Positions 10,612 through 63,579 of a stretch of 64,000 nt of DNA are shown piece after piece; position 1 is the stretch's first letter, and every line of letters starts with the position of its first letter. The stretch comes from Escherichia coli (GTDB lineage: Bacteria > Pseudomonadota > Gammaproteobacteria > Enterobacterales > Enterobacteriaceae): NCBI RefSeq assembly GCF_003018115.1, contig NZ_CP027457.1. The stretch is one strand, 5' to 3'. The notes below the pieces were generated by a model. The model was not told the origin of the DNA and did no database searches. It worked only from the letters and a program-made list of their open reading frames with translations. The translations under genes and the position numbers were made by a program.

Positions 10612-10674
10612 TTCTCATGCGTTCATGCACCACTGGAAGATCTGAATGTCTTCCAGCACACATCGCCTGAAAGA

Positions 10675-25654: not shown

Positions 25655-25979
25655 ATCGTGTGAACGGGGCGCATATTAATGGCAGTGCATGGTGATGTCA
25701 AAGGGTGAAATGCATTTTTTTGTTTGTTTGCTGTCAATTTCAACAAAGTGATGAGATTTCAATCTTATTGGTAATGAACCATCGTGGTGCATACCCTCCT
25801 TTTATAGGGCAGGGGAACGCGACTGCTGGTGAAAAGAGCCAATGACGAATCTATCATAATCTCTTATTTGACAGTTGGTTAGCTTGTACATCAACGCCAA
25901 AATAAAACTGGCAAGCATCTTGCAGTCTGGTTGTAAGTAATGGCGGCACTTGGGCCGATTCTCAAAAACCGGAGGCAAC

Positions 25980-26897
25980 ATGAACTTCAGACGCCTGAAA
26001 TACTTCGTAAAAATTGTAGATATTGGTAGCCTGACCCAGGCTGCTGAAGTATTGCATATCGCACAACCAGCGCTCAGCCAGCAGGTTGCCACACTGGAAG
26101 GTGAGTTAAATCAACAACTTTTGATTCGCACAAAACGAGGCGTTACGCCAACAGACGCCGGAAAAATTCTCTATACCCATGCGCGGGCCATTTTACGTCA
26201 GTGTGAGCAGGCCCAACTGGCGGTGCATAACGTTGGTCAGGCATTATCGGGGCAAGTCTCGATTGGCTTTGCGCCAGGAACCGCTGCGTCATCCATCACC
26301 ATGCCCTTATTACAGGCGGTTCGCGCTGAATTTCCGGAGGTCGTTATCTATCTTCATGAAAATAGCGGTGCAGTGCTTAACGAAAAACTGATAAATCACC
26401 AACTCGATATGGCGGTGATTTATGAGCATTCCCCTGTGGCTGGTGTATCCAGTCAGGCTTTACTGAAAGAAGATCTTTTTCTGGTAGGAACTCAAGATTG
26501 CCCGGGGCAAAGCGTTGATGTTAATGCTATTGCGCAAATGAACCTCTTTCTCCCCAGTGATTACAGTGCTATTAGACTTCGTGTTGATGAGGCTTTTTCC
26601 CTACGGCGACTCACGGCAAAAGTCATTGGTGAAATTGAGTCTATTGCCACGCTTACCGCAGCGATTGCGAGCGGCATGGGCGTTGCAGTATTACCCGAAT
26701 CGGCCGCGCGTTCGTTATGTGGCGCAGTAAACGGGTGGATGTCACGCATTACCACACCTTCCATGAGTCTCTCTTTGTCACTAAATTTACCCGCCAGAGC
26801 GAACTTATCACCACAGGCGCAAGCAGTGAAAGAGTTGTTAATGTCAGTGATGAGTTCTCCAGTGATGGAAAAAAGGCAGTGGCAATTGGTGAGCTAA
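25980..26897 (+). CDS. nac: Nitrogen assimilation control protein (LysR family)
   Basis: ORF 25950..26897; start at MNFRRLKYFVKIVDIGSLTQAAEVLHIAQPALSQQV... (305 aa). Confidence 0.93.
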   Translation: MNFRRLKYFVKIVDIGSLTQAAEVLHIAQPALSQQVATLEGELNQQLLIRTKRGVTPTDAGKILYTHARAILRQCEQAQLAVHNVGQALSGQVSIGFAPGTAASSITMPLLQAVRAEFPEVVIYLHENSGAVLNEKLINHQLDMAVIYEHSPVAGVSSQALLKEDLFLVGTQDCPGQSVDVNAIAQMNLFLPSDYSAIRLRVDEAFSLRRLTAKVIGEIESIATLTAAIASGMGVAVLPESAARSLCGAVNGWMSRITTPSMSLSLSLNLPARANLSPQAQAVKELLMSVMSSPVMEKRQWQLVS

Positions 26898-26998
26898 GCG
26901 TTATATCGGGATGGAATAAGATGCGGGTTTTTATTATTTGTTATGCCGGGCATTAGACTTTAACAATAACGGGAAATCTGAACTGCCCGGAGTTTACC

Positions 26999-27949
26999 GT
27001 GAATTTCCAACAACTAAAGATAATCCGCGAGGCTGCACGTCAGGATTACAACCTGACAGAGGTTGCGAATATGCTTTTTACCTCACAGTCAGGCGTCAGC
27101 CGTCATATTCGGGAACTGGAGGATGAACTTGGCATCGAAATATTTGTTCGACGAGGTAAGCGACTGCTGGGCATGACTGAACCGGGCAAAGCATTACTGG
27201 TCATTGCAGAACGTATTCTGAATGAAGCCAGTAATGTTCGTCGGCTTGCAGACCTGTTTACCAACGATACGTCTGGCGTTCTCACTATTGCAACGACGCA
27301 TACTCAGGCACGTTATAGCTTGCCAGAGGTCATTAAAGCTTTTCGCGAACTTTTCCCGGAGGTTCGGCTCGAGCTAATCCAGGGGACGCCACAGGAAATT
27401 GCGACGTTGTTGCAAAATGGCGAAGCTGATATTGGTATCGCCAGCGAGCGTTTGAGTAATGACCCGCAGCTCGTCGCCTTCCCGTGGTTTCGTTGGCACC
27501 ATAGTTTGCTTGTTCCACTCGATCATCCCTTGACGCAAATTACACCGTTGACGCTGGAATCAATAGCGAAGTGGCCGTTAATTACTTACCGACAGGGGAT
27601 TACGGGGCGCTCACGTATTGATGACGCATTTGTCCGCAAAGGTTTGCTGGCAGATATTGTATTAAGTGCGCAGGATTCTGATGTCATTAAAACCTATGTT
27701 GCTCTTGGGCTGGGGATTGGATTAGTTGCCGAACAATCCAGCGGCGAACAAGAGGAAGAGAATTTAATCCGTCTGGATACGCGGCATCTTTTCGATGCCA
27801 ATACTGTATGGTTGGGACTGAAGCGAGGGCAACTTCAACGTAACTATGTCTGGCGCTTTCTGGAACTTTGTAATGCAGGACTGTCAGTTGAGGATATCAA
27901 GCGCAAGGTGATGGAGAACAGTGAAGAGGAAATTGATTATCAGATATAG
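26999..27949 (+). CDS. cbl: CysB-like LysR-family regulator of sulfonate utilisation
   Basis: 316-aa ORF MNFQQLKIIREAARQDYNLTEVANMLFTSQSGVSRHI... Confidence 0.93.
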   Translation: MNFQQLKIIREAARQDYNLTEVANMLFTSQSGVSRHIRELEDELGIEIFVRRGKRLLGMTEPGKALLVIAERILNEASNVRRLADLFTNDTSGVLTIATTHTQARYSLPEVIKAFRELFPEVRLELIQGTPQEIATLLQNGEADIGIASERLSNDPQLVAFPWFRWHHSLLVPLDHPLTQITPLTLESIAKWPLITYRQGITGRSRIDDAFVRKGLLADIVLSAQDSDVIKTYVALGLGIGLVAEQSSGEQEEENLIRLDTRHLFDANTVWLGLKRGQLQRNYVWRFLELCNAGLSVEDIKRKVMENSEEEIDYQI

Positions 27950-27955
27950 CAAAAA

Positions 27956-27976
27956 GCCCGCTATAAAAGCGGGCTT
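27956..27976. terminator. Bidirectional terminator between cbl and tRNA-Asn
   Basis: Hairpin gcccgctataaaagcgggc flanked by A-run and T-run. Confidence 0.7.
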
Positions 27977-27986
27977 TTCAGAAATT

Positions 27987-28062
27987 TGGCTCCTCTGACT
28001 GGACTCGAACCAGTGACATACGGATTAACAGTCCGCCGTTCTACCGACTGAACTACAGAGGA
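27987..28062 (-). tRNA. asnU: tRNA-Asn (GUU)
   Basis: 76-nt sequence identical to the other tRNA-Asn copies. Confidence 0.95.
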
Positions 28063-28222
28063 ATCGCTGTTGAGGCACATCTTAACGGCGAAAAATCTTT
28101 TGTCAAACCCGATTTTTAAATTTCCCAACTGTTTGCCGTTTCTATCAACAGTTTGTTGCATTTGCAGACAATTTGTTGGCGAAAATCTTTGCAGCTTTGC
28201 TGATTCTCCCTCATTATTTGAA

Positions 28223-29710
28223 ATGTGGTTTCACTTTCTGCAATTAAGGTCGGCTTTGAATATCTCCTCTGCTTTACGCCAGGTTGTTCACGGCACTCGC
28301 TGGCACGCTAAACGCAAGAGCTACAAAGTGTTGTTCTGGCGCGAGATAACCCCGCTTGCTGTTCCTATCTTCATGGAGAATGCCTGTGTCCTGTTGATGG
28401 GGGTTCTGAGCACTTTTCTGGTCAGCTGGCTGGGAAAAGATGCGATGGCCGGCGTGGGATTGGCGGACAGCTTCAATATGGTCATTATGGCTTTTTTTGC
28501 TGCTATCGATCTTGGTACTACTGTCGTTGTGGCATTTAGTCTCGGTAAGCGGGATCGACGACGAGCGAGGGTGGCGACGCGGCAGTCATTGGTGATCATG
28601 ACGTTGTTTGCCGTACTGTTGGCAACGCTTATTCATCATTTTGGCGAACAAATTATTGATTTCGTCGCGGGTGATGCCACGACAGAAGTTAAAGCACTGG
28701 CGTTGACTTATCTGGAGCTGACGGTACTCAGTTATCCAGCAGCTGCCATCACTCTTATTGGTAGCGGGGCACTTCGTGGTGCAGGGAATACGAAAATACC
28801 GCTATTGATTAACGGTAGCCTGAATATTCTTAATATTATTATTAGCGGCATATTGATTTACGGCCTTTTCTCCTGGCCGGGACTGGGATTTGTCGGGGCA
28901 GGGCTGGGTTTAACCATTTCTCGTTATATTGGCGCAGTTGCAATTTTGTGGGTGCTGGCGATTGGTTTTAATCCTGCGCTAAGGATTTCGTTAAAGAGCT
29001 ATTTTAAACCGCTGAATTTTAGCATTATCTGGGAAGTCATGGGGATTGGTATTCCCGCGAGTGTCGAATCAGTGTTATTTACCAGTGGTCGGTTATTAAC
29101 CCAAATGTTCGTTGCCGGGATGGGGACCAGTGTTATTGCCGGAAATTTTATCGCGTTTTCAATTGCGGCTCTTATCAACTTACCCGGAAGTGCGCTCGGC
29201 TCTGCTTCTACGATCATTACAGGCCGAAGGTTGGGGGTAGGGCAGATAGCGCAAGCAGAGATTCAGTTGCGGCATGTGTTCTGGCTGTCCACTCTTGGAT
29301 TAACGGCCATCGCCTGGCTAACGGCTCCCTTTGCCGGGCTTATGGCATCGTTTTACACCCAGGATCCACAAGTTAAACATGTCGTTGTGATTCTGATTTG
29401 GCTAAATGCTTTATTTATGCCTATTTGGTCCGCCTCATGGGTGCTACCCGCTGGATTTAAAGGTGCTCGTGATGCCCGTTACGCCATGTGGGTTTCGATG
29501 TTGAGCATGTGGGGTTGTCGGGTTGTCGTCGGTTATGTGCTGGGAATCATGCTTGGCTGGGGTGTGGTTGGTGTCTGGATGGGAATGTTTGCCGACTGGG
29601 CTGTGCGGGCCGTGCTGTTTTACTGGCGAATGGTTACTGGACGTTGGCTATGGAAATACCCTCGATCCGAGCCGCAAAAGTGTGAAAAAAAGCCAGTTGT
29701 GTCGGAATAA
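28223..29710 (+). CDS. yeeO: MATE-family multidrug/flavin efflux transporter
   Basis: ORF 28070..29710; start placed at MWFHFLQL... (ATG 28223, 495 aa) because the longer frame begins only 8 nt from the divergent tRNA. Confidence 0.82.
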   Translation: MWFHFLQLRSALNISSALRQVVHGTRWHAKRKSYKVLFWREITPLAVPIFMENACVLLMGVLSTFLVSWLGKDAMAGVGLADSFNMVIMAFFAAIDLGTTVVVAFSLGKRDRRRARVATRQSLVIMTLFAVLLATLIHHFGEQIIDFVAGDATTEVKALALTYLELTVLSYPAAAITLIGSGALRGAGNTKIPLLINGSLNILNIIISGILIYGLFSWPGLGFVGAGLGLTISRYIGAVAILWVLAIGFNPALRISLKSYFKPLNFSIIWEVMGIGIPASVESVLFTSGRLLTQMFVAGMGTSVIAGNFIAFSIAALINLPGSALGSASTIITGRRLGVGQIAQAEIQLRHVFWLSTLGLTAIAWLTAPFAGLMASFYTQDPQVKHVVVILIWLNALFMPIWSASWVLPAGFKGARDARYAMWVSMLSMWGCRVVVGYVLGIMLGWGVVGVWMGMFADWAVRAVLFYWRMVTGRWLWKYPRSEPQKCEKKPVVSE

Positions 29711-29810
29711 ACGACAAAATGCAGATTATTTCAGCAAACGATTTCAAATTTAAAAAACAGGCTTTGACATTGTGGGTGGGCATCGCTAATATTCGCCTCG
29801 TTCTCACGAT

Positions 29811-29886
29811 TCCTCTGTAGTTCAGTCGGTAGAACGGCGGACTGTTAATCCGTATGTCACTGGTTCGAGTCCAGTCAGAGGAGCCA
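29811..29886 (+). tRNA. asnW: tRNA-Asn (GUU)
   Basis: 76-nt canonical tRNA-Asn on the plus strand, inverted relative to the other three copies. Confidence 0.95.
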
Positions 29887-29948
29887 AATTTTAGTTTTGA
29901 GACATCTCTATGAGTCTCAAGGCAGTTAAAAAATAAAAATTATTTTTA

Positions 29949-29984
29949 CCCGGCCACTTTGTAAAAAAGTGGCCGGGTTTTTTG
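29949..29984 (+). terminator. Intrinsic terminator downstream of plus-strand tRNA-Asn
   Basis: Hairpin cccggccactttgtaaaaaagtggccggg followed by a T-run. Confidence 0.75.
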
Positions 29985-30335
29985 ATTTCTGTGTTTCGTG
30001 CGCTTAATCGAGTCTCACGCTTCAGTGAGCAAATTGCCCCTCCCCAACAGACATCACGATTCACAAGGTCAAAAATTCTGTTCCATGAAGTACCGTACAA
30101 AGATAAAGAGAAAAATGCCTTATGCGGGATGTCGCTGTCGCGTCTTTATCGGGAAACTATACGTAATTACCACTTGCCTTCTGTAATCAGAAAAAGAAGA
30201 CCTGGAATTTTAATAAATATTATTTCTCTGGGGGGATTTTTATAATCAATATGACGAGTTGAAAATTATATTCTTTATAAGAATTATATGAGGTTAAAGA
30301 AATCTGCCGTAAAGACAGATTTCTTTAAAAGATAA

Positions 30336-31052
30336 TTAGAGATTTGCGACGTTATGATAAACTTTTTGTACATCGTCGTCATCTTCAAGGGCATCAACAA
30401 GCCCTTCAAAGATTTCTAAATCTTCTGGGGAAAGCTCAACTTCAGATTGAGCAATCATTTCTAATTCTGTTGTTGAGAACTCAGTGATTCCAGCTGCTTT
30501 TAGAGCCGCGATTCCTTTATGAAGGTCAGTAGGTTCGGTATAAATAACAATGTTACCTTCTTCTTCAGTCACATCACGAACATCAACTTCAGCTTCAAGT
30601 AAAATTTCAAAAATATGGTCAGGGTCTGATCCTTTAAATACAATCACACCAGTATTGTCAAACATATAGCTGACAGAACCTGCCGCTCCGATATTGCCGC
30701 CTTTTTTATTGAAAATTGTGCGAACGTTAGCAATCGTACGGTTAACATTTGAAGTCAATGTCTCGGCGATAATCATTGAGCCATTAGGACCAAAGCCTTC
30801 ATAACGGCCCTGCACGAATGTTTCATCTCCGCCGCCTTTGGCTTTATCAATTGCTTTATCAATAACGTGCTTTGGAACTTGTGCCTGCTTTGCACGTTCA
30901 ATAACGAATTTTAAAGATGTGTTTAATTCTGGATCGGGTTCACCTTGTTTAGCGGCAGCATAGATTTCTACACCGAATTTTGCATAAATTTTAGACGTTG
31001 CACCGTCTTTAGCCGTTTTTTTAGCAACAATATTGGCCCATTTACGTCCCAC
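30336..31052 (-). CDS. yeeN: YebC/PmpR-family transcriptional regulator
   Basis: 238-aa [34 protein letters not shown]... Confidence 0.9.
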
Positions 31053-31394
31053 TGGAATGATCTCCTCGAAAATTTATTTACATTACTGGTAAATCGTTAA
31101 CATGTGTTAATTCGGCATATTATATCATAACAGGAAAAATCTCGTCTATTAGAAATAAAAATATTCTAAAGCCATAATCTTATATTTAATTTTATAAAAA
31201 CTTATATTGTTGGCGGGATTTTTTATAATTGTGTTTTGAAAGCATACTTGCTTTTAATATGTGGAAATCATTAAGACGATAATAAAACTCGTATCCGCCC
31301 AAGGAAGCAAACAGCCCGCGTTTATTGCGGGCTATTTGCCAGATGTCTTACTTAATCCTTCACATCTATTTTTGATAAGAAGGTTCAGAACTTA

Positions 31395-32849
31395 TTATCG
31401 GAACGGCGGCTCATTAAAGGTTCGTAATTTACGTGAATGCAGTCGGTCGCCTTCTGCGCGCAGCAAATCGATCGCCCGAATGCCAATTTGTAGGTGTTCG
31501 GAAATAGCGCCTTCATAAAAACGGTTAGCCTGACCGGGAAGTTTAATCTCGCCATGCAACGGTTTATCTGAAACACACAGTAGTGTCCCGTATGGCACGC
31601 GGAAACGATATCCTTGCGCGGCAATGGTTGCACTTTCCATATCAATTGCTACGGCCCGGCTTAAGTTAAAACGAAGTGCAGAAGCTGAGTAACGTAATTC
31701 CCAGTTCCTGTCATCTGTGGTTACCACAGTACCAGTACGTAGCCGCTGTTTGACTTCCTCACCGGGCCTGCCGCTCACCAGCTTGGTGGCGTCATAAAGC
31801 GCACGTTGCACTTCAGCAATGCTCGGAATAGGAATATCGGGCGGCAGAACCGCATCAAGAACGTGGTCATCGCGTAAATAAGCGTGTGCAAGTACATAAT
31901 CGCCAATGGCCTGACTTTCACGTAATCCGCCACAGTGACCAATCATCAACCAGACATCCGGGCGTAGCACTGCCAGATGATCGCAGATGGTTTTAGCATT
32001 TGACGGTCCCACGCCAATATTCACCAGAGTAATACCCTGACCATCGGCGGTAATTAAATGCCATGCTGGCATCTGGTGTTTTTTCCATGCAAGGTCGGAA
32101 ATGGCTTCTTCTGGCGCTTCGGTTTCGGCGGTGATCCAGTTCCCGCCAGCACAAGAAAGGGCAATGTAGGGACTATCAGGATCGAGGATCTGGCTGCATC
32201 CCCAACGAACGAATTCATCCACATAACGTGTATAGTTGGTAAACAAGACGAACGGCTGAAAATGTTCAACTGGCGTACCGGTATAATGGCGCAACCGTGC
32301 GAGGGAAAAATCGACGCGGCGCGCATCAAAATGCGATAGCGGGGAGAATTCAGTTGGATGATAAATGCCGTCTGCAGTTTCATCGCCAATTTGCGCCAGT
32401 TCTGTTGTCGGGAAATAGCGAGTTAACCCAGCGCTCATTGAGCGATCAAGTGTCAATTCAGAGCCATCGATGACATAAGGATAAGGGATTTCATGCTGCG
32501 AGGGTTGCACCGAGATATGCGCACCATAATCCTGATACAGCAACGTAAGTTGTTCATTGAGATACGAACGAAAGAGAGTAGGGCGAGTAATCGTGGTGGT
32601 GTAGCTGCCTGCGTGAGTAAAACGACCAAATGCGCGCGTTTTAGGGGGATTGGTTGTGCTACCATCCCAGGTTACGGTCAGTGATGGATAGACAAAAAGA
32701 CCTTGTTTGCGGGCGTTTTCATCAGGTAATTCGCCACTTGTAATATATTTGCCAATGGCGTTGCGTAAAGCGACTACAGATTGCTCATACAGCGCGTCGA
32801 GTTTATCCAGTGCCTGAGCTGGGGTCAGACCGGAGCCCTTATTATTCAT
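31395..32849 (-). CDS. amn: AMP nucleosidase
   Basis: ORF 31395..33005; start at MNNKGSGLTPAQALDKLDALYEQSV... (ATG 32849, 484 aa). Confidence 0.92.
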   Translation of the reverse strand: MNNKGSGLTPAQALDKLDALYEQSVVALRNAIGKYITSGELPDENARKQGLFVYPSLTVTWDGSTTNPPKTRAFGRFTHAGSYTTTITRPTLFRSYLNEQLTLLYQDYGAHISVQPSQHEIPYPYVIDGSELTLDRSMSAGLTRYFPTTELAQIGDETADGIYHPTEFSPLSHFDARRVDFSLARLRHYTGTPVEHFQPFVLFTNYTRYVDEFVRWGCSQILDPDSPYIALSCAGGNWITAETEAPEEAISDLAWKKHQMPAWHLITADGQGITLVNIGVGPSNAKTICDHLAVLRPDVWLMIGHCGGLRESQAIGDYVLAHAYLRDDHVLDAVLPPDIPIPSIAEVQRALYDATKLVSGRPGEEVKQRLRTGTVVTTDDRNWELRYSASALRFNLSRAVAIDMESATIAAQGYRFRVPYGTLLCVSDKPLHGEIKLPGQANRFYEGAISEHLQIGIRAIDLLRAEGDRLHSRKLRTFNEPPFR

Positions 32850-32950
32850 GTGTGTCTCCTGTTCCATACAATTACCGCACATCCGATAGTATGTCACAGA
32901 AATGTGAAACAAAAGTGTAAGGCGAAGATCGGATGATCTTCGCCAGGCTA

Positions 32951-34267
32951 TCAAGCGCGTTGACTGTCTTTCATCAACAAAGCGGTCATTGCGGAAATCA
33001 GGCATCCAGCCAGCAAATAAATGGCGACGCTATGCCAGTTCCCGGCAAAGTAAGTGATGAGTGCAGCGGCAATAAAAGGTGTAAATCCACCGCCAACCAC
33101 ACTGGCAACCTGATAACCGACTCCAGCGCCACTATAGCGATAACTGGCACCAAACATTTCGGTAAACATCGGTTGTTGCACACACACCACCATGTCATGC
33201 GCAATGTTTGCCAGCATTATGGAGAAGAAAACTATCCAGAAAATAGATTGTGCTTCAAGCGCCATAAAGAAAGGAAATGCGCTCAACGTTCCGATTAACG
33301 CACCTGTGATATAAACCCTGCGGCGACCAAAACGATCGGCAAGCCAGGCAAAACAGGGAATTGTCAGGCAGCTTAATCCACCTACCAGCAAACCAATATT
33401 AAGGAAAAGTTCGCGCGGTAACCCCATATTCTGGGTTGAATAATTAAGTGCAAAGGCGGTAACGATGTACATCGTCAGCAACTCGCACAGCCGTAGCGCA
33501 ATAATCTTCAGGAAAGCACCAGGATGTCGTAACAGCGCTTCGATAACCGGGATGCGTTTTTTCGCGGCAGCTTGATTATGTTGCTGTTGTTCAAATTCCG
33601 CGGACTCTTCCATGCCATTGCGCACCCACAATGCTCCCAGTACCAGTACGATGCTAAACAGGAAAGGAATGCGCCAGCCCCAGCTTAAAAACTGTTCGTC
33701 AGTCGTCATTATACTGATCAATGAAACCAGTCCGGTTGAAAGCAGTAAACCTACTCCGTAGCCAACTTGTACACCGCTACTGTAAAAGGCTTTTTTATTT
33801 TCCGGCGCACTTTCAACGGAAAGCAACGCCGCGCCTCCCCATTCGCCGCCGACGGCAAATCCCTGAATGGCACGCAGTGTCACCAGCAAAATAGGTGCCC
33901 ACCACCCAATGGTCGAGAATGAAGGAAGAATACCAATCAAGGCTGTCGCGATGCCCATCATCCAGACGGTCAGCATTAACATGCGCTTACGTCCCAGTCG
34001 GTCGCCAAAGTGACCGAAAATGACACCGCCGAGCGGACGGAAAAGGAATCCGACGCCAAAGGTGGCAAATGCGGCGAGCGTTCCCATAGCCGGGCTTACT
34101 TGCGGGAAAAACTCGCGATTAAAAACCAGTGCGGCGGTAATGCCATAGAGTAAAAAATCATACCAGTCGACGACGGCACCAGCGAAACTGCCTAACGCAG
34201 CTCGTCGGGCGCGACTTAACGAAAGCGTCCCTTCATCGGGACGAGTGGAGATGAGCGTGGAGTCCAT
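32951..34267 (-). CDS. shiA: Shikimate:H+ symporter (MFS)
   Basis: 438-aa 12-TM MFS ORF MDSTLISTRPDEGTLSLSRARRAALGSFAGA... Confidence 0.92.
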   Translation of the reverse strand: MDSTLISTRPDEGTLSLSRARRAALGSFAGAVVDWYDFLLYGITAALVFNREFFPQVSPAMGTLAAFATFGVGFLFRPLGGVIFGHFGDRLGRKRMLMLTVWMMGIATALIGILPSFSTIGWWAPILLVTLRAIQGFAVGGEWGGAALLSVESAPENKKAFYSSGVQVGYGVGLLLSTGLVSLISIMTTDEQFLSWGWRIPFLFSIVLVLGALWVRNGMEESAEFEQQQHNQAAAKKRIPVIEALLRHPGAFLKIIALRLCELLTMYIVTAFALNYSTQNMGLPRELFLNIGLLVGGLSCLTIPCFAWLADRFGRRRVYITGALIGTLSAFPFFMALEAQSIFWIVFFSIMLANIAHDMVVCVQQPMFTEMFGASYRYSGAGVGYQVASVVGGGFTPFIAAALITYFAGNWHSVAIYLLAGCLISAMTALLMKDSQRA

Positions 34268-34581
34268 AATGATCCTGTTTGTACTGTCTTTTTATAATTA
34301 GTATGGAAAAGGTAACTCACATTGCTGTCGATCTATAAACGAACCTTATGAGACTACCTCGACAGAGCGCATCTGCAAATGATTTTATGGCTGATGAGCA
34401 GCAACATGAAAAATTCGCTGGAAGATGAAAGCGCAGGAGTTGCTGGTGTTGTTTAAGGATTAAGCAGAGGCCCCACAGGTTCGAGATATGAAACATAAAA
34501 GTCCGCATATGCACAAAATTGCACCCTGATGATTCTGATAGACTGCATTGCATTATAACCAGTAGGGAGGCGAGGTTAGTT

Positions 34582-35634
34582 ATGTTTTTAGCATCATTGT
34601 TGAGACGTATTGTATTTAGTTACTACGATTATAAAGCTTATAATTTCAATATTGAAAAAACAGAGTTTGTTGTTATCCATATTCCCGATCAGATTGGCGA
34701 TGCTATGGCCATCTTTCCTGTTATTCGGGGGCTTGAATTGCATAAAATTAAGCATCTTTTAATTGTAACGTCGACAATTAATTTAGAAGTCTTTAATGCG
34801 CTCAAACTTGAACAGACTAAATTAACATTAGTCACAATGACTATGCAGGATCACGCAACATTAAAAGAAATAAAAGATTTAGCGAAGAACATAACACAGC
34901 AATACGGTACGCCGGATCTTTGTATAGAGGCGATGCGTAAAAAGAACCTGAAAACGATGTTATTTATCAGTCAGTTGAAAGCAAAAACGAATTTTCAGGT
35001 TGTTGGTTTAACCATGAAGTGCTATTCCCCTTTGTGTAAGAACGCGTCCCGGATGGATCAGAATCTCCGGGCTCCTGTACCCATGACATGGGCATTTATG
35101 ATGCGGGAGGCGGGTTTTCCAGCAGTCAGGCCAATATATGAATTGCCACTAAGTGAGGATGTACTCGATGAGGTGCGCGAGGAAATGCGATCGTTAGGAG
35201 CTTACATTGCGCTCAATTTAGAAGGTAGCTCGCAGGAACGTACATTTTCACTATCGATTGCAGAAAATCTAATAGAAAAAATTCAAAGTGAAACAGATAT
35301 ACCAATAGTGATCGTTCATGGACCAAAAGGGGAAGGTAAAGCCAGGGCATTAGTGGATTGTTATAATAATGTCTACCGTTTATCCTTATCACCCTCGATT
35401 AAACGTTCAGCAGCAATCATAAAAGATGCTTATATCGCAATAACTCCTGACACCTCAATATTACATATGGCAAGTGCCTATAATACCCCCGTTGTTGCAA
35501 TTTATGCTGATTACAAAACGCGATGGCCCGCAATGGCCGATGTTTCGGAGTCAGTCGTCGTTGGGCAAAAAATTGACAATATAAGTCTGGATGAATTCGC
35601 AAAGGCATTAAAAAGTGTTTTGGCGAGAATATGA
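34582..35634 (+). CDS. yeeL: Glycosyltransferase family 9 (heptosyltransferase-like) protein, apparently intact
   Basis: ORF 34519..35634; start placed at ATG 34582, which follows a GGGAGG RBS (about 350 aa). C-terminal GT9-type motif (ITPDTSILHMASAYNTPVVAIYADY). AT-rich codon usage. Confidence 0.75.
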   Translation: MFLASLLRRIVFSYYDYKAYNFNIEKTEFVVIHIPDQIGDAMAIFPVIRGLELHKIKHLLIVTSTINLEVFNALKLEQTKLTLVTMTMQDHATLKEIKDLAKNITQQYGTPDLCIEAMRKKNLKTMLFISQLKAKTNFQVVGLTMKCYSPLCKNASRMDQNLRAPVPMTWAFMMREAGFPAVRPIYELPLSEDVLDEVREEMRSLGAYIALNLEGSSQERTFSLSIAENLIEKIQSETDIPIVIVHGPKGEGKARALVDCYNNVYRLSLSPSIKRSAAIIKDAYIAITPDTSILHMASAYNTPVVAIYADYKTRWPAMADVSESVVVGQKIDNISLDEFAKALKSVLARI

Positions 35635-35895
35635 GGCAGTACTTATGAATAGTAATGCCGATCTGTTATGAACGGTGGTGTCATCAATACTCTGAGGCTG
35701 GTCAATCATCACAGAAAACCAGCCTTTAGATCAAAGCAGTACTCACCGAAAATGATCATAGTCACATCGAACGCGATTCTGGCGGTGCAGCATTTTTATT
35801 TATTCATTTTCTGTGAGAGAAGGGCAAGCTCTATAGAGGGAATGTAAAAAAGAGTGCCCCGAATGGAGCACTCTTTAAGAAATTATAACGGAAAA

Positions 35896-43878
<7,983 letters not shown>

Positions 43879-44191
43879 GCTTACCTTCCCTGAACGAGCT
43901 AACATAAATGCGCCCTTTCTAGCACAGCGAAAAAATGTAAATCCTGATAGCAATATGATTGAAAATTAATAACTTTTCGTTAGGCAGTTTTGGGGGTGAG
44001 TTGCAAGAGGGGAGACTACTGAATAACTCAAGTTTTATAATCGAGGGGAAAATGGTGATGGCGTTCATAGCAAAACGCCCTCAACCATAAAGGTCGAGGG
44101 CGCTTAAGATGTTAAAAACCCGCTATCCGTTAAAAAACAATGTTCAACTAAGGTCAGTGACATTGCGCTAAAAAAGCGAATTTTTAGAATT

Positions 44192-44267
44192 TGGCTCCTC
44201 TGACTGGACTCGAACCAGTGACATACGGATTAACAGTCCGCCGTTCTACCGACTGAACTACAGAGGA
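44192..44267 (-). tRNA. asnT: tRNA-Asn (GUU)
   Basis: 76-nt canonical tRNA-Asn; 5'-flank conserved with the copy at 25579-25654. Confidence 0.95.
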
Positions 44268-47441: not shown

Positions 47442-47476
47442 AACAGTTTCCTCCAGAGTTAATGTATATGATGTGT

Positions 47477-47500
47477 AATGTTATATTGTAACATATAACA
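47477..47500. promoter_or_regulatory. Probable Zur box in the zinT promoter
   Basis: AT-rich palindrome tgttatat-N6-atataaca directly upstream of zinT. Confidence 0.65.
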
Positions 47501-47625: not shown

Positions 47626-47666
47626 GCTGCGTAGGCCGGATAGGGCGCTCGCGCCACATCCGGCAG
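47626..47666. repeat. REP (repetitive extragenic palindromic) element
   Basis: gcgtaggccggatagggcgctcgcgccacatccggca, the typical REP consensus, between zinT and msrQ. Confidence 0.8.
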
Positions 47667-47697
47667 GGATAACGCGTACTTTGTCGGCAATATGAAG

Positions 47698-48333
47698 TTA
47701 TACAGATAATTTGTTGTGAACCTGCTTGCGTAACCGGTTAAAAAGGGAACGCAACTTCTTATACCGTAAGGCTAAAAGCAGTACAGCCAGCCCAGCGTAG
47801 ATGAGCGGCTGCGGTGAAATAATCTTCACTGACCACAGATAATGTATTGGGGACAGGATCGCGACAAGATAGACGAAATTATGCAACTGTTGCCAGTGCT
47901 TGCCGAGTTTTCGCTGCATCGCCTGGGTTGAAGTAAACGCTAAAGCAAGCAAAATAACCCAGCTGATAATTCCTAACGTTAAATAAGGCCGGGTAATTAA
48001 CTCCTTGCCTAATAACGCCAGATTATTCACGCCCAGCTCCAGCAATGCGTAACTGGTTAAATGCAGTGTCGCCCAGGCAAAGCACCATAAGCCTAACAGG
48101 CGGCGAGTGCGTATCAATAACGGCTGTTTTGCGTAGCGTGCCAGAGGTGTGATTAACAAGGTCGCCAGCAAAAATTTCAGTGCAGTGCGACCAGTAAAAT
48201 GCTGAATATCTTTCACCGGATCGGCACCCAGTCCACCGTGATTGATTGCCCAGACCAGCCAGAGAAACGGCAACAATCCGGCAAGATGCAGGCAAACTTT
48301 CAGCCATGTCACCTGTTTTGCTGTCAGACGCAT
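47698..48333 (-). CDS. msrQ: Methionine sulfoxide reductase heme-binding subunit
   Basis: 211-aa polytopic membrane [26 protein letters not shown]... Confidence 0.92.
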
Positions 48334-49344
<1,011 letters not shown>

Positions 49345-49446
49345 TCACACTTTTTTGTCGTTAGCCAGCAAGAGCCGTTTACTGCTAATCTGTCAGGGAG
49401 TGTCCTCCCTAACAGTAGCAGAGATCTGCTTTTACATATTTATGCA

Positions 49447-49860
49447 TTAACTGCCACGATAGGTTGAATACCCATATTGGCTAAGTAATAAAGGCACATG
49501 ATAATGCTCGTTCACTTTATTAATATGAAATTCAACGGGGATCTCAGGGAAGAAACTTTCAAGATTTTGTTTCTTGAAATAGTCCCCGGTTTTAAATACG
49601 ACACGGTAATCGCCCGTAGTTGCAGTTTGCTCGGGCCACAGTGCCTTAATTCGTCCATCCTTATCTGTTTTGGCGGTATTAAGTTGTAACCAGCCGTTAT
49701 CCGCTTTCTTTTCAAGAGTGACTGTCACGTCGGCAGCGGGTTTTCCTGTTTGCTGGTTCAAAATGTGCACGCTAAGAATGTTTTGTTGTGCAGCATAGAC
49801 CAAAGAAGGTAATGAAAATGCAGCCGTTACTACGGAGAGTACTAAATAACGCTTTAACAT
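49447..49860 (-). CDS. hiuH: 5-hydroxyisourate hydrolase (transthyretin-like periplasmic protein)
   Basis: 137-aa ORF with signal peptide and C-terminal YRGS motif. Confidence 0.9.
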
Positions 49861-49992
49861 GTTTATATCCTTGTCATGTGAATGAGTTTTGAGGATAGCG
49901 AAAAAGCGTCCAGGGTAACCTTACAGCAGCATTACAATTTTGTAATGAACCAGGCTGTTTCTATAACATATGATTTATGGCATATTATTTTC

Positions 49993-50664
49993 ATGAAGAT
50001 TTTACTTATTGAAGATAATCAAAGGACCCAGGAGTGGGTAACGCAGGGGCTTTCCGAAGCGGGTTATGTCATCGATGCCGTTTCTGATGGCAGAGATGGG
50101 CTTTATCTTGCGCTGAAGGATGATTATGCATTGATCATTCTGGATATTATGCTTCCGGGTATGGATGGCTGGCAGATCTTACAAACGTTAAGAACGGCAA
50201 AGCAAACCCCTGTTATTTGCCTTACTGCAAGGGATTCTGTCGATGACAGAGTCAGAGGGCTGGACAGTGGAGCAAATGATTATCTGGTAAAACCTTTTTC
50301 ATTTTCTGAGTTGCTGGCAAGGGTTCGGGCACAATTAAGGCAACATCACGCTTTGAATTCAACATTAGAAATCAGCGGCTTAAGAATGGACTCTGTTAGT
50401 CAAAGTGTGAGCAGGGACAATATCAGTATTACACTGACGCGCAAGGAGTTTCAGTTACTTTGGCTACTGGCCTCCAGAGCTGGCGAAATTATACCCAGAA
50501 CGGTTATTGCGAGTGAAATTTGGGGAATCAACTTTGATAGTGATACCAATACGGTGGACGTCGCCATTCGCAGGCTCCGCGCAAAAGTTGATGATCCTTT
50601 TCCTGAAAAGCTAATCGCCACAATCCGGGGGATGGGCTATTCATTCGTAGCGGTAAAAAAATAA
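49993..50664 (+). CDS. hprR: Two-component response regulator (OmpR family)
   Basis: ORF 49882..50664; start at MKILLIEDNQRTQEW... (ATG 49993, 223 aa). Confidence 0.9.
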   Translation: MKILLIEDNQRTQEWVTQGLSEAGYVIDAVSDGRDGLYLALKDDYALIILDIMLPGMDGWQILQTLRTAKQTPVICLTARDSVDDRVRGLDSGANDYLVKPFSFSELLARVRAQLRQHHALNSTLEISGLRMDSVSQSVSRDNISITLTRKEFQLLWLLASRAGEIIPRTVIASEIWGINFDSDTNTVDVAIRRLRAKVDDPFPEKLIATIRGMGYSFVAVKK

Positions 50665-52022
50665 TGAAAAGATTATCTATAACCGTCCGTTTAACCTTGC
50701 TTTTTATATTGCTGCTGTCTGTTGCTGGCGCTGGAATTGTATGGACTCTCTATAATGGCCTGGCAAATGAGTTGAAATGGCGCGATGATACAACACTCAT
50801 TAACCGGACAGCACAGATCAAGCAGTTGTTAATTGATGGGGTAAATCCAGATACGTTACCTGTGTACTTTAACCGGATGATGGATGTTAGTCAGGATATC
50901 TTGATCATTCATGGTGATAGCATCAATAAAATTGTTAACCGGACAAATGTCAGTGATGGCATGTTAAATAACATACCTGCTAGTGAGACAATCAGCGCAG
51001 CTGGCATTTACAGAAGCATTATTAATGATACAGAGATAGATGCTTTACGAATTAATATTGATGAAGTTTCGCCATCATTAACGGTTACTGTGGCTAAATT
51101 GGCTTCAGCCAGACATAACATGCTTGAACAGTATAAAATCAATAGCATTATAATTTGCATTGTCGCCATTATACTGTGCTCAGTATTAAGTCCGCTGTTA
51201 ATCCGGACGGGGTTACGAGAGATCAAAAAGTTGAGTGGTGTAACGGAAGCGCTGAATTATAACGATAGCCGAGAGCCTGTTGAGGTTAGCGCATTACCGA
51301 GAGAACTAAAACCTCTTGGGCAGGCGTTGAATAAAATGCATCATGCTTTAGTCAAAGATTTTGAGCGTCTAAGTCAGTTTGCTGACGATCTCGCTCATGA
51401 ACTTAGAACGCCAATTAATGCATTACTGGGTCAGAATCAGGTTACGCTCAGTCAAACCAGAAGTATCGCTGAATATCAAAAAACAATTGCCGGAAACATT
51501 GAAGAGCTGGAAAATATTTCGCGGTTAACAGAGAACATACTGTTTCTTGCCAGGGCAGATAAAAACAATGTTTTGGTGAAACTGGACTCGCTTTCTCTCA
51601 ATAAGGAAGTCGAAAATTTGTTGGACTATCTTGAATACCTTTCAGACGAGAAAGAGATTTGCTTTAAGGTCGAGTGCAATCAGCAAATCTTTGCGGATAA
51701 AATTTTACTACAACGAATGTTATCGAATCTTATTGTTAACGCTATTCGATATTCGCCAGAAAAATCGCGTATTCATATAACCAGTTTTCTTGATACCAAC
51801 AGCTATCTTAATATTGATATCGCCAGCCCTGGAACGAAAATTAATGAGCCTGAAAAACTCTTCCGTAGATTTTGGCGGGGAGATAATTCGCGTCATTCCG
51901 TAGGTCAGGGACTAGGCCTTTCTTTAGTCAAAGCGATTGCCGAATTACATGGGGGAAGTGCTACGTATCACTATCTCAATAAGCATAATGTGTTCCGGAT
52001 TACGTTGCCGCAAAGAAATTAA
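50664..52022 (+). CDS. hprS: Two-component sensor histidine kinase
   Basis: 452-aa ORF with two TM segments, H-box (LAHELRTP) and ATPase G-boxes; start overlaps the hprR stop. Confidence 0.9.
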   Translation: MKRLSITVRLTLLFILLLSVAGAGIVWTLYNGLANELKWRDDTTLINRTAQIKQLLIDGVNPDTLPVYFNRMMDVSQDILIIHGDSINKIVNRTNVSDGMLNNIPASETISAAGIYRSIINDTEIDALRINIDEVSPSLTVTVAKLASARHNMLEQYKINSIIICIVAIILCSVLSPLLIRTGLREIKKLSGVTEALNYNDSREPVEVSALPRELKPLGQALNKMHHALVKDFERLSQFADDLAHELRTPINALLGQNQVTLSQTRSIAEYQKTIAGNIEELENISRLTENILFLARADKNNVLVKLDSLSLNKEVENLLDYLEYLSDEKEICFKVECNQQIFADKILLQRMLSNLIVNAIRYSPEKSRIHITSFLDTNSYLNIDIASPGTKINEPEKLFRRFWRGDNSRHSVGQGLGLSLVKAIAELHGGSATYHYLNKHNVFRITLPQRN

Positions 52023-52118: not shown

Positions 52119-52970
52119 TTAACCCGCGTAAGCTGCCAGCATTTCCTGCGCCGCCAGTTTACCCAACGCATTCGCTGCAAAAGGACTGTCGCCGGTGAAA
52201 AGTTTACGGTCCTTATGTACTCGCCCGGTGATGTCGTCATTAATGATGTTCATGCCCATTTTCTTCAGCTCTTCGCCGAAGTACCAGGTGAGATGACCCG
52301 GCATATAGCCAATCTCTGGCGTTTGTTTGTCTGCGGCGTCTGGGAATGCGCAAATGGAATAACCATTCAGTGGGTTATCGCCGTGGCGAAGCGCCAGAAA
52401 AGCCGCCGGGCCGTGGCAAAGGGAGATAACAAAACGGTCATTTTTGATTGCCCACTGTAAAGCGGCAGCTACGTCCTGGCTTTCAGGTAAACCAATAAGT
52501 GCGCCATGACCACCAGGAACAAAGATTGCTGCATATTCGCTATCAGCGTTGAGGCTGGCGACAACATCCGCGAGTTTCTTCGGATTGCGGAACAACGATT
52601 TATGCTGCTCAAAGAATGGCATTACTTTTTCATCTTTGTGCGGCATAGCCCAGTATTCAAACTTGGTCATCAGACCGGAAATGGTCGCCACTTCGAATTC
52701 GAAACCTGCAGCATGGAGATGATACAACGGCAGCAACGTTTCAATCGGATGGTTACCGGTCGAGAACAGCTTTCCGTTATCGGTCGGCAAATAACGTTCG
52801 TCCGCGGCGATCACCAGAATTTTATGTTTACCGCGATACGGTTTTGGATAGTCCACGCCATCAAGATCAGAGACAGGACTGGTATATTGGCTAAGCGAAT
52901 ATTCTGAAGGGAAGAATGCATTATCTTCAGCAATATCGACCTGCGGATTTTTACTTGTTTGAACAGTCAT
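52119..52970 (-). CDS. hchA: Hsp31 glyoxalase III / protein deglycase (DJ-1/PfpI family)
   Basis: 283-aa ORF MTVQTSKNPQVDIAEDNAFFPSEYSLSQYTSP... Confidence 0.93.
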   Translation of the reverse strand: MTVQTSKNPQVDIAEDNAFFPSEYSLSQYTSPVSDLDGVDYPKPYRGKHKILVIAADERYLPTDNGKLFSTGNHPIETLLPLYHLHAAGFEFEVATISGLMTKFEYWAMPHKDEKVMPFFEQHKSLFRNPKKLADVVASLNADSEYAAIFVPGGHGALIGLPESQDVAAALQWAIKNDRFVISLCHGPAAFLALRHGDNPLNGYSICAFPDAADKQTPEIGYMPGHLTWYFGEELKKMGMNIINDDITGRVHKDRKLFTGDSPFAANALGKLAAQEMLAAYAG

Positions 52971-53562: not shown

Positions 53563-54756
53563 TTAGAACTGGTAGACTAAGCCCACAGCAACGATATCAT
53601 CGGTAGCGATGCCGTTTGCTTCGTAGAAGTCATCGTCGTTGTCCAGCAGGTTGATTTTGTAATCAACATAGGTGGACATGTTTTTGTTGAAGTAGTAGGT
53701 CGCACCAATATCAACGTATTTAACCAGATCTTTATTGGTGTAACGTGGGTCGCCGTTGCCGTCATGAGCCCAACCGCCTAAATCCTTACCTTTAGATTGC
53801 AGGTAAGCGATGGACGGGCGCAGGCCAAAGTCGAACTGATACTGAGCAACAACTTCAAAGTTTTGGGTTTTGTTAGCGATGGCTGATCTTGATTCACCAT
53901 TATCAAACTCGCCACCACCATATGGGGTCATATTGCGAGTTTCAGCGTACATAGCTGCTAAATACACATTATTAGCATCATATTTTGCACCAACAGTCCA
54001 TGCTTCAGCGGTTTCACCACCAGCATTTCTGTTGCTATGGTTACGATCATTTAAACCAACTCCAACCTGACGATCTGAACGATCAGAGTTTGAATATGCA
54101 GCACCCAGACTTAAACCGAAGTCGAAGTCATAGGAAGTGGACATACCGAAACCATCACCATTTTCTTGAGCAATGTCCCGACCCTTACCCTTACCAGAAC
54201 CTTCCTGACCGAATGGACCACCGTTTTCGTTATTACTCTGATATTGCAGAGCAAAGTTCAGGCCATCGACCTGACCAAAGAAGCCATTGTTACGGTAGGT
54301 TGCAACACCATTAGCACGACCGTTCATGAAGTTGTCAGCGCCAGCATAGGTATCGCCACCAAATTCTGGCAGCATATCGGTCCATGCTTCTACGTCATAT
54401 ACGACACCGTAGTTACGACCATAGTCGAAAGTACCATTCTGACCAAAGCCTAAACCTGCAAATGCCAGACGCGTTGCAGTATTACCTTTGTCGCTTTCAG
54501 TACCGTTTGCGCCAATGTTAAATTCCCACTGACCGTAACCAGTGAATTGATCAGCGATCTGAGTTTCACCTTTGAAACCGATACGGGCATATGACATGTC
54601 GCCATCGCTGCCAGAATCATCAGAGAAGTAGTGCAGACCCACTACTTTTCCGTACAAATCCAGTTTATTACCATCTTTATTATAGACTTCAGCCGCATTT
54701 GCTGCGCCAGCAACTAATAACGCCGGGACCAGCATTGCCAGAACTTTTCTTTTCAT
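53563..54756 (-). CDS. yedS: OmpC/OmpF-family general porin, apparently intact
   Basis: ORF 53563..54825; start at [37 protein letters not shown]... (397 aa), C-terminal aromatic residue (YQF). Confidence 0.88.
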
Positions 54757-55066
54757 TATGTATTCCCTTGTGATTATAATCTTCATGAATATATCAATAA
54801 GTGCCGTTATCCAAAAAAAGCACATTTGGATACTATTCTATGAAGTTCATTTTATTTTAAGGATTGCATGTAACAAATGTATTTAAAAGATTTCAAAATG
54901 TTTCTAATCTATTTAATATAATTCAGGATTATGAATTCTGAATATAAACATTCATGAAGATTATAAATGCATATCAATATGTTATGAGTTGAGCGGAAAC
55001 ATAGGGGGTATCAATGATTGTTGCGCCAAACGGCTGGTGTGATCAGGCGCACATTAATGAAGGCAT

Positions 55067-55160
55067 AAAAAAAAGCCGGCATCATGCCGGCCCAAAAAAT
55101 ATAAACAAGACGATAAAAGGCTAATAACGGTAGCATCATGACACAGAATAATAAAAAGGT
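55067..55160 (-). ncRNA. Candidate small RNA in the yedS-yedR spacer (possibly RseX); extent approximate
   Basis: Minus-strand intrinsic terminator (gccggcatgatgccggc followed by a U-run) at 55067-55091 with no ORF upstream. The 5' end is not defined. Confidence 0.35.
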
Positions 55161-63492: not shown

Positions 63493-63579
63493 AACACATC
63501 AGATTTCCTGGTGTAACGAATTTTTTAAGTGCTTCTTGCTTAAGCAAGTTTCATCCCGACCCCCTCAGGGTCGGGATTT
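63493..63579 (+). ncRNA. dsrA: DsrA small regulatory RNA (Hfq-dependent; rpoS activator and hns repressor)
   Basis: AACACATCAGATTTCCTGGTGTAACGAATTTTTTAAGTGCTTCTTGCTTAAGCAAGTTTCATCCCGACCCCCTCAGGGTCGGGATTT, with terminal hairpin and U-run, matches DsrA as I recall it. Confidence 0.9.

Follow-up and report, generated by a model that had tools for sequence, protein, structure and literature searches.

The divergent arrangement of a two-component system and an oxidoreductase gene cluster in this Escherichia coli genome raises the question of whether the locus is the known periplasmic stress module of the species, and how its two transcription units are controlled. In the 64-kb stretch of DNA that was analysed (the window), three genes lie on the minus strand, namely msrQ (47698-48333, 211 aa), msrP (48334-49338, 334 aa) and hiuH (49447-49860, 137 aa), and two on the plus strand, hprR (49993-50664, 223 aa) and hprS (50664-52022, 452 aa). 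The initial annotation had placed the whole cluster at 49447-52022. This range contains hiuH, hprR and hprS, whereas msrP and msrQ fall outside it. The divergence of hiuH-msrPQ from hprRS that it described was borne out, as gene order and orientation agree with the open reading frames, the RefSeq annotation of a 99.7%-identical genome and the annotation of strain K-12. The hprR start at 49993, which had been assumed, is the annotated and conserved start of the 223-aa protein. A longer hprR reading frame beginning at 49882 was rejected, as other genera do not keep the additional upstream codons in frame and RefSeq gives 223 aa.

The gene identities that had been proposed from the sequence were all correct, judged by NCBIfam equivalog models, Pfam domains and near-identity to K-12; all five proteins either score above the cut-off of their curated family model or share at least 98.5% of their residues with the K-12 counterpart. 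HprR, a response regulator of the OmpR/PhoB family, matched the HprR equivalog NF008567 with 483.3 bits (cut-off 353) as well as the Pfam domains Response_reg and Trans_reg_C, has the receiver Asp51 in place and shares 222 of its 223 residues with K-12 HprR. For the sensor histidine kinase HprS, no HprS-specific NCBIfam model was matched and the assignment by model is limited to the heavy-metal sensor kinase subfamily TIGR01386 (318.5 bits, cut-off 292.55), together with the Pfam domains HAMP, HisKA and HATPase_c; 450 of the 452 residues are the same as in K-12 b1968, and Met72, Met73, Met100, Met153, Cys165 and the H-box His245 are all present. The periplasmic transthyretin-like 5-hydroxyisourate hydrolase HiuH was recognised by NF011610 (296.9 bits, cut-off 217), TIGR02962 (150.5 bits, cut-off 87.45) and Pfam Transthyretin (PF00576). 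It ends in YRGS (...STYRGS), and the solved E. coli chain 2G2N begins at its residue 24, which fits a Sec signal of 23 aa.

MsrP, a Tat-exported molybdopterin methionine-sulfoxide reductase, scored 506.7 bits with the equivalog NF003767 (cut-off 207) and matched Pfam Oxidored_molyb (PF00174). Its residues 21-27 form the twin-arginine motif KRRQVLK, and the solved E. coli YedY chain 1XDQ begins at residue 45, which fits a signal peptide of 44 aa; four amino acids differ from K-12. MsrQ, the membrane-bound haem-binding electron donor of MsrP, matched NF003831 (239.8 bits, cut-off 130) and Pfam Ferric_reduct (PF01794), differs from the K-12 protein by a single exchange (A161S) and contains His91, His151 and His164, which we take to be the haem ligands. 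With the activity assigned from the literature, MsrP and MsrQ are here the predicted periplasmic methionine-sulfoxide reductase system.

The locus corresponds to K-12 hprSR (yedVW) and hiuH-msrPQ (yedXYZ), b1968-b1972, in order, orientation, gene lengths and both gene junctions. The 132-nt spacer between hiuH and hprR is 100% identical to that of K-12, including the regulator box discussed below, a single nucleotide differs in the 108-nt hiuH-msrP spacer, and the proteins are 1-4 residues apart. The five-gene block is carried by about 5,400 of 5,426 complete E. coli genomes. In K-12, the hprRS operon is divergent from the tricistronic hiuH-msrPQ operon, which is induced by HOCl and reactive chlorine species (RCS) through HprSR (bioRxiv 10.1101/2021.09.09.459708; PMC9302797). 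The initial annotation had called the cluster a known oxidative and hypochlorite stress module, and these reports describe the same module. With a probability of about 95%, we regard the locus as the E. coli HprSR/hiuH-msrPQ periplasmic reactive chlorine stress module in a copy nearly identical to that of K-12. From this near-identity we infer that HOCl and RCS would also induce hiuH-msrPQ via HprSR in the present strain.

Following the published model, HprS would sense HOCl and related oxidants via periplasmic methionines and a membrane cysteine; M72, M73, M100, M153 and C165 have been implicated (bioRxiv 10.1101/2021.09.09.459708). HprS would then phosphorylate HprR, and HprR~P would bind a palindromic box in the 132-nt divergent spacer, turn on hiuH-msrP-msrQ as one transcript and also raise the expression of hprRS. 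Copper induction would be brought about by CusR at the same box. Among the products, the molybdenum-cofactor enzyme MsrP would reduce methionine sulfoxide in periplasmic proteins with electrons from MsrQ, and HiuH would remove 5-hydroxyisourate; a 2026 preprint gives urate hydroperoxide as the alternative substrate. The module serves as a periplasmic defence against neutrophil-type oxidants and adds to copper tolerance; a gain in fitness in the inflamed gut was reported by a 2026 preprint. The system is already known and its biology is established in K-12 and Nissle; the present locus shows only that the strain carries the standard, intact version.

The involvement of CusR raises the alternative that the two-component system is primarily a copper or heavy-metal system of the CopRS/CusRS type, with hiuH as a gene of the copper regulon and the oxidant response as a secondary effect. 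Several observations fit this reading. HprS and HprR score high enough to pass TIGR01386 and TIGR01387, the subfamily models for heavy-metal sensors and regulators. CusR also binds the box, CusSR mediates the induction of hiuH-msrPQ by copper (PMC9302797), and the Salmonella homologue was named CopRS (PMC10083560). Moreover, the cusC promoter has the same architecture, and in Providencia and Siccibacter the hiuH promoter retains the operator with three half-sites described below, with no two-component system within 6 kb. However, induction by HOCl and N-chlorotaurine in E. coli needs HprSR, whereas copper induction needs CusSR and not HprSR (PMC9302797; bioRxiv 10.1101/2021.09.09.459708; PMC10083560), and the methionine and cysteine residues of HprS implicated in oxidant sensing are conserved here. 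A primary role in copper sensing is therefore unlikely.

Next, we analysed the control region of the reactive chlorine module. The published HprR/CusR box CATTACAAAATTGTAATG is matched exactly on the minus strand at 49930-49947, an 8+2+8 inverted repeat CATTACAA/TTGTAATG with the half-sites ATTACA (49941-49946) and TGTAAT (49931-49936). Its position, 70-87 nt before the hiuH ATG, agrees with the two reports (bioRxiv 10.1101/2021.09.09.459708; PMC9302797), and the box is unique in the window even when 3 mismatches are allowed (0.09 expected by chance). The earlier suggestion to look for an HprR-type direct repeat in 49861-49992 and 49339-49446 needs correction: a regulator box is present in the first interval but is inverted rather than direct, and the hiuH-msrP spacer contains no box with up to 3 mismatches. 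A repeat search with a 6-nt seed detected no direct repeats in either spacer. The HprR element is a palindrome, and a direct-repeat component appears only if a third conserved half-site is taken in; with half-sites of 5-6 nt, this component becomes visible only through cross-genus alignment.

This third half-site, TGTAAG (49920-49925, minus strand), repeats half-site 2 in direct orientation with a period of 11 bp, and it occupies roughly positions -40 to -35 of the hiuH promoter, for which TATCCT at 49892-49897 (minus strand) is the predicted -10 hexamer. In the cross-genus alignment, the information content peaks at the third half-site while the sequence of the N5 spacer varies. The half-site is kept as YGTMAS with the fixed N5 spacing in the window, in 13 of 14 other hiuH promoters and in K-12 cusC; the hiuH promoter of Intestinirhabdus has TGAAAG at this position. 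E. coli, E. fergusonii and Salmonella were not among the matches returned by the HiuH search of genome contigs, and their absence there is not evidence of absence. Most hiuH promoters in the alignment, and likewise that of K-12 cusC, have a TAnnnT hexamer 21-22 nt downstream of half-site 3, and the composite motif of three half-sites is unique in the window. We infer from this conservation that the operator probably consists of three half-sites, ATTACA-N4-TGTAAT-N5-TGTAAG.

The expected -35 region coincides in part with the third half-site, the conservation of which could therefore reflect contacts of RNA polymerase rather than of HprR. In that case, the third half-site would merely be the -35 region of hiuH, and HprR would bind as a symmetric dimer to the published palindrome alone. 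The position of the half-site, with the TAnnnT hexamer at the distance given above, is consistent with this explanation, as is the definition of the box as an 18-bp palindrome alone in the two reports (PMC9302797; bioRxiv 10.1101/2021.09.09.459708). On the other hand, the third half-site (TGTMAS) is closer to half-site 2 than to TTGACA, and the exact N5 distance from half-site 2 is held across genera with unalignable flanks and also in the paralogous cusC promoter. A mere -35 region is thus a considerable possibility, albeit not the one that we favour.

The favoured three-half-site operator resembles class II activation of the PhoB/PmrA/KdpE type. HprR belongs to the same OmpR/PhoB family, and PmrA/BasR and KdpE, which bind in tandem to direct repeats, are among its closest relatives of solved structure. 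The direct repeat TGTAAT-N5-TGTAAG with its 11-bp period abuts the -35 region in a similar way, and the two direct half-sites would accordingly be placed next to the hiuH promoter -35 position as in PhoB/PmrA-type tandem binding. Unlike in that type, a further half-site in inverted orientation precedes the direct repeat in the HprR operator and renders the published box palindromic. E. coli CusRS/cusCFBA is likewise comparable, being a paralogous heavy-metal-type system with divergent genes, a common recognition sequence and a three-half-site operator that points toward the regulated operon; it differs in its signal (Cu/Ag) and its output, an RND efflux pump. In Salmonella and Citrobacter, the homologous copRS genes are also divergent from hiuH and share the same operator.

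In the opposite direction, a candidate extended -10 element of the hprRS promoter, TGgCATATT, was predicted at 49978-49986 on the plus strand, ending 6 nt before the hprR ATG. The invariant columns TGnCAnAnT were found in the window and in 10 of 10 hprR/copR orthologues adjoining hiuH, where they end 6-7 nt before the ATG, and none of these 11 sequences has a Shine-Dalgarno sequence before hprR. The paralogue cusR, by contrast, has a canonical one (GGAGGAAAT). The lack of a Shine-Dalgarno sequence together with the conserved extended -10 element so close to the start codon suggests that the hprRS mRNA may be leaderless. Leaderless mRNAs are rare in E. coli. A literature search for a leaderless hprR returned nothing relevant, and the searched supplementary text on E. 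coli 3'-end mapping (PMC7815308) and Cappable-seq transcription start sites (PMC4782308) has no entry for hiuH, msrP, hprR or yedW.

Downstream of this start, the last base of the hprR stop codon TAA (50662-50664) is the A of the hprS ATG (TAATG), and this overlapping junction is kept across genera. On the other strand, the msrP TAA directly abuts the msrQ ATG (TAAATG; spacer of 0 nt), and the Shine-Dalgarno-like GGGAGAA lies inside the 3' end of msrP. The stop-start overlap and the adjacency pointed out in the initial annotation were thus confirmed, and these junctions make it reasonable to suppose that translation is coupled at hprR/hprS and at msrP/msrQ; hprS would then be translated via its coupling to hprR.

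The genes hiuH, msrP and msrQ lie on the same strand with no canonical terminator or promoter between them, and a REP element on the minus strand (47631-47664; GCCGGATGTGGCGCGAGCGCCCTATCCGGCCTAC) directly 3' of msrQ marks the likely end of the operon. A search with Rfam families in E-value mode over 45.5-55.5 kb gave nothing in the locus beyond a sub-threshold match to the REP-derived naRNA4 at 47634-47699. In K-12, RT-PCR links hiuH to msrP and msrP to msrQ (bioRxiv 10.1101/2021.09.09.459708), and the operon and its dependence on HprSR are documented by RT-PCR, lacZ fusions and mutants (bioRxiv 10.1101/2021.09.09.459708; PMC9302797; PMC9805139; PMC10083560).

The RNA of the hiuH-msrP spacer contains a stem-loop at 49382-49421 (minus strand) with 17 bp, a 2-nt bulge and the loop GACA. 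Its inner arms (49390-49400/49405-49415) comprise 11 bp with 91% complementarity and can be extended to the 17 bp, and the whole spacer folds at -39.3 kcal/mol (z = -5.5 versus shuffled sequences). E. albertii and Escherichia sp. MOD1, the latter with two stem pairs simply broken, keep the stem but vary in the loop, and no compensatory changes were found in the stem among four closely related Escherichia sequences. An intrinsic (Rho-independent) terminator was ruled out, as the hairpin is followed by UAAACGGCUCUUGC, which is not a U-tract, and the terminator scan was silent on it. Without a U-tract, the hairpin would let transcription through at the junction, possibly only in part. The fold-inductions reported for hiuH and msrP are inconsistent between conditions, with about 190-fold versus 13-fold for copper by qRT-PCR (PMC9302797) and 20-fold versus 70-fold for HOCl with lacZ fusions (bioRxiv 10.1101/2021.09.09.459708), and thus give no consistent sign of polarity at the hairpin.

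The history of the junction bears on the same question. Among the genera compared, a position of msrPQ behind hiuH is restricted to E. coli, E. albertii and Escherichia sp. MOD1, whereas E. fergusonii and Citrobacter carry msrPQ at acuI-accB, presumably the ancestral site. The K-12 acuI-accB site retains an msrQ remnant, yrdE, which matches MsrQ; the K-12 pseudogene yrdF was considered as an MsrP fragment and rejected, as it has no detectable similarity. Salmonella and Citrobacter differ from E. coli in having msrPQ separate at acuI-accB and a hiuH gene that ends in a canonical terminator, while MsrP and MsrQ are orthologous, with 91% identity for MsrP in Citrobacter. Canonical terminators were found 3' of hiuH in Citrobacter, Pseudescherichia, Intestinirhabdus and two other Enterobacteriaceae genomes. 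The hairpin straddles the presumed insertion junction of msrPQ, and its 3' arm shows homology to the sequence between acuI and msrP in E. fergusonii and Citrobacter. These patterns would be explained if hiuH was ancestrally monocistronic and acquired msrPQ behind it in the E. coli/E. albertii lineage.

Such an origin might also have left hiuH and msrPQ as separate units, with the hairpin terminating the hiuH transcript and msrPQ being driven by what is left of its ancestral promoter towards the 3' end of the spacer. The strength of the hairpin would agree with this, as would the homology of the 3' portion of the spacer to the region upstream of msrP at acuI, which carries a separate msrP promoter in other genera; an msrP promoter has been described in Salmonella (PMC10083560), and outside Escherichia the hiuH genes of relatives are monocistronic with a terminator. 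Nevertheless, co-transcription was detected in K-12 across a nearly identical spacer (bioRxiv 10.1101/2021.09.09.459708), and induction of MsrP is abolished in an hprRS deletion mutant (PMC10083560). Besides the missing U-tract, a consensus scan of the minus strand of the spacer gave neither a promoter-like nor a terminator-like site, and the -10-like CATATT of Citrobacter aligns with CAGATT here. Two separate units are therefore very unlikely.

It may be speculated that these features belong together: a three-half-site operator in 11-bp phase for HprR/CusR-type regulators, shared by genera from Providencia to Escherichia and by cusC; leaderless hprRS/copRS mRNAs beside hiuH; and a recent chimeric hiuH-msrPQ operon, assembled from msrPQ plus about 65 nt of its old upstream DNA, in which the junction hairpin tunes read-through and sets the hiuH:msrPQ stoichiometry. 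This combined proposal is tentative, and it is doubtful that all of its parts will hold. These observations could aid specialists in designing promoter and RNA experiments. If confirmed, they would be incremental and would explain the different wiring of msrPQ to its sensors in Salmonella and E. coli; Salmonella msrP is under the control of CpxRA and not of CopRS (PMC10083560).

The similarity to K-12 extends beyond the module, as the flanking genes hchA, zinT, yodB and serU are also the same. The two loci show only allelic differences (about 98-99% nucleotide identity), and a neighbouring yedS-type porin gene, a pseudogene in K-12, is an intact open reading frame here.

The hprRS/hiuH-msrPQ locus was delineated by combining the ORF list with family searches. 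Three genes are encoded on the minus strand, hiuH (49447-49860, 137 aa), msrP (48334-49338, 334 aa) and msrQ (47698-48333, 211 aa), and two on the plus strand, hprR (49993-50664, 223 aa) and hprS (50664-52022, 452 aa). The range 49447-52022, which the initial annotation had assigned to the module, thus holds hiuH and hprRS, whereas msrPQ lie just to its left. The locus is flanked by hchA (52119-52970, minus strand) on one side and by zinT, yodB and tRNA-Ser(CGA) on the other. E. coli K-12 has the identical order (hchA-hprS-hprR / hiuH-msrP-msrQ-zinT-yodB-serU), although the window reads in the opposite direction; gene DNA is 98.1-99.1% identical, with 1-4 residue differences per protein. A 4.5-kb query spanning the block matched 5,420 of 5,426 complete E. 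coli genomes, and at the top match (99.7% identical) RefSeq annotates hprS, hprR, hiuH, msrP and msrQ. The proposed identity of the module is correct and already known, and the window carries the standard intact E. coli version. In a few E. coli strains an IS1 insertion was found within the locus (H10, NZ_CP100966.1; H29, NZ_CP020058.1), and a handful of matches (7-9 places) were located on plasmid-typed records.

The mechanism of the system is taken from the literature, and its sequence prerequisites were all verified in the window. MsrQ, MsrP, HiuH and HprR score above the curated cut-offs of NCBIfam equivalog models, HprS exceeds that of the NCBIfam heavy-metal sensor kinase subfamily model, and all five proteins contain the expected Pfam domains. 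MsrP carries the twin-arginine motif KRRQVLK, and the solved E. coli YedY chain starts at residue 45, consistent with removal of a 44-aa Tat signal. HiuH ends with YRGS, and its solved E. coli chain starts at residue 24, in line with a Sec signal. Asp51 is present in HprR. HprS contains the H-box His245 as well as Met72, Met73, Met100, Met153 and Cys165, the residues to which HOCl sensing has been tied (bioRxiv 10.1101/2021.09.09.459708). What we infer beyond this, namely a third operator half-site, a possibly leaderless hprR, a junction hairpin and a relocation of msrPQ, is of modest interest.

The initial annotation had expected HprR-type direct repeats in the two spacers. A direct-repeat search reported none in either the hiuH-hprR or the hiuH-msrP spacer. 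Instead, the hiuH-hprR spacer contains a perfect 8+2+8 inverted repeat, CATTACAA/TTGTAATG (49930-49947), which read on the hiuH strand (CATTACAAAATTGTAATG) is the HprR/CusR (YedW) box described in the literature. Its distance from the hiuH ATG (70-87 nt upstream) is also exactly that published (bioRxiv 10.1101/2021.09.09.459708; PMC9302797), and the entire 132-nt spacer is identical in K-12. Even at 3 mismatches the box is the sole match in the 64-kb window (chance expectation 0.09), and the hiuH-msrP spacer has none.

Registering hiuH promoters on the box revealed three half-sites, AT[G/T]AC-N5-TGTMAT-N5-YGTMAS, on which information content is highest, while the N5 spacers vary. They are found in the window, where the composite motif is unique, in 13 of 14 further hiuH promoters and in the cusC promoter of K-12; the third site of Intestinirhabdus is TGAAAG. 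The third half-site of the window, TGTAAG (49920-49925, hiuH strand), forms a direct repeat of 11-bp period with TGTAAT (49931-49936), so the expectation of a direct repeat was partly right at the level of half-sites. In most promoters a TAnnnT hexamer follows the third half-site after 21-22 nt (in the window TATCCT, 49892-49897, a candidate -10 of hiuH), which would place this half-site at about -40 to -35. Alternatively, the third element may simply be the -35 region of the hiuH promoter. The proteins of solved structure closest to HprR include PmrA/BasR and KdpE, which bind in tandem to direct repeats. The full three-half-site operator also lies ~65-110 nt upstream of hiuH in Providencia (extracted loci L017, L018 and L020) and Siccibacter (L006), which have no two-component system within 6 kb. 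This suggests that hiuH is controlled there by an unlinked CusR/CopR-type regulator.

On the other side of the spacer, hprR lacks a Shine-Dalgarno sequence, whereas its paralogue cusR has a normal one (GGAGGAAAT). An extended -10 with the invariant columns TGnCAnAnT is common to the window and each of the 10 hprR/copR orthologues adjoining hiuH, and ends 6-7 nt ahead of the ATG (6 nt in the window; candidate TGGCATATT, 49978-49986, plus strand). Taken together, this predicts that the hprRS mRNA may be leaderless.

The gene junctions were as initially described. The hprR stop and hprS start codons share one base (TAATG), and the msrQ ATG follows the msrP TAA at once (0 nt between), with a Shine-Dalgarno-like GGGAGAA inside msrP ahead of msrQ. 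Judging from the junction sequences, in Citrobacter and other non-Escherichia orthologues the hprS start codon lies within the last hprR codons (~11 nt overlap), so the overlapping junction is a conserved feature. Translational coupling at both junctions is a reasonable reading of these arrangements.

The RNA of the hiuH-msrP spacer is predicted to fold into a stem of 17 bp interrupted by a 2-nt bulge (49382-49421, minus strand; -39.3 kcal/mol, z = -5.5). This stem lacks a subsequent U-tract and was not called in the terminator scan, and hiuH-msrP-msrQ are co-transcribed according to RT-PCR (bioRxiv 10.1101/2021.09.09.459708). Therefore, the hairpin is at most a partial terminator, pause site or stabiliser, between which published induction ratios do not decide (PMC9302797; bioRxiv 10.1101/2021.09.09.459708). 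The K-12 spacer differs by one base that weakens the outer stem, E. albertii keeps the stem with a different loop and Escherichia sp. MOD1 has lost two stem pairs; no compensatory changes were detected among these three.

A HiuH scan with one genome per species yielded 21 loci. Divergent hprRS homologues adjoin hiuH in Escherichia sp. MOD1, E. albertii, Citrobacter amalonaticus, C. sedlakii, Pseudescherichia, Intestinirhabdus, Erwinia and two more Enterobacteriaceae genomes (one labelled Escherichia sp. ESNIH1), and no hprRS-type system was found within 6 kb of hiuH in Siccibacter, Providencia, Serratia, Chimaeribacter and Edwardsiella. Only in Escherichia sp. MOD1 and E. albertii, among the 21 loci, does msrPQ follow hiuH as in the window and K-12. 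In Citrobacter, Pseudescherichia, Intestinirhabdus and two further Enterobacteriaceae genomes, hiuH ends with a canonical GC-rich hairpin, which in several of them precedes a T-run. E. fergusonii and Citrobacter carry intact msrPQ between acuI and accB (MsrP 94% and 91% identical, respectively). At this site K-12 has the pseudogenes yrdF/yrdE (3960-4936 of the extracted locus L028); the decayed yrdE corresponds to MsrQ residues 101-193 (67% amino acid identity), and similarity of yrdF to MsrP is undetectable. The 3' arm of the spacer hairpin, together with the remaining sequence before the msrP ATG, can be aligned to the E. fergusonii/Citrobacter acuI-msrP spacer (ACTCCCTGCCATATTAAC versus ACTCCCTGACAGATTAGC). 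This homology suggests that msrPQ moved behind hiuH together with ~65 nt of old upstream DNA, in which case the hairpin would straddle the junction. Such a relocation agrees with Salmonella, where CopRS adjoins hiuH yet CpxRA controls msrP (PMC10083560), and with a 2026 preprint describing the architecture hprS-hprR-hiuH-msrP-msrQ as characteristic of E. coli. The search for MsrP relatives also returned P0085, a predicted protein of 574 aa on a 3.2-kb metagenome contig, whose MsrP part is 99% identical to MsrP and which has additional domain hits at its N-terminus; it may represent a hiuH-msrP read-through or a frameshift artefact.

Directly after msrQ lies a REP element (GCCGGATGTGGCGCGAGCGCCCTATCCGGCCTAC, 47631-47664), with a sub-threshold Rfam naRNA4 match at 47634-47699. 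An AT-rich palindrome upstream of zinT (TGTTATATGTTACAATATAACATTACA, ~47468-47494, minus strand) looks like a putative Zur operator. At the position of the K-12 pseudogene yedS, the window contains an intact OmpC-family porin ORF (53563-54825, minus strand), mechanically called with 23 extra N-terminal residues ahead of the MKRKVLA signal peptide and adjoined by the sRNA rseX (55068-55157). Four tRNA-Asn genes (within 25579-44267), a 2,685-aa ORF upstream of mtfA/serU (35896-43953, minus strand), the his operon leader (10576-10699) and DsrA (63493-63579) are ordinary E. coli chromosome context.
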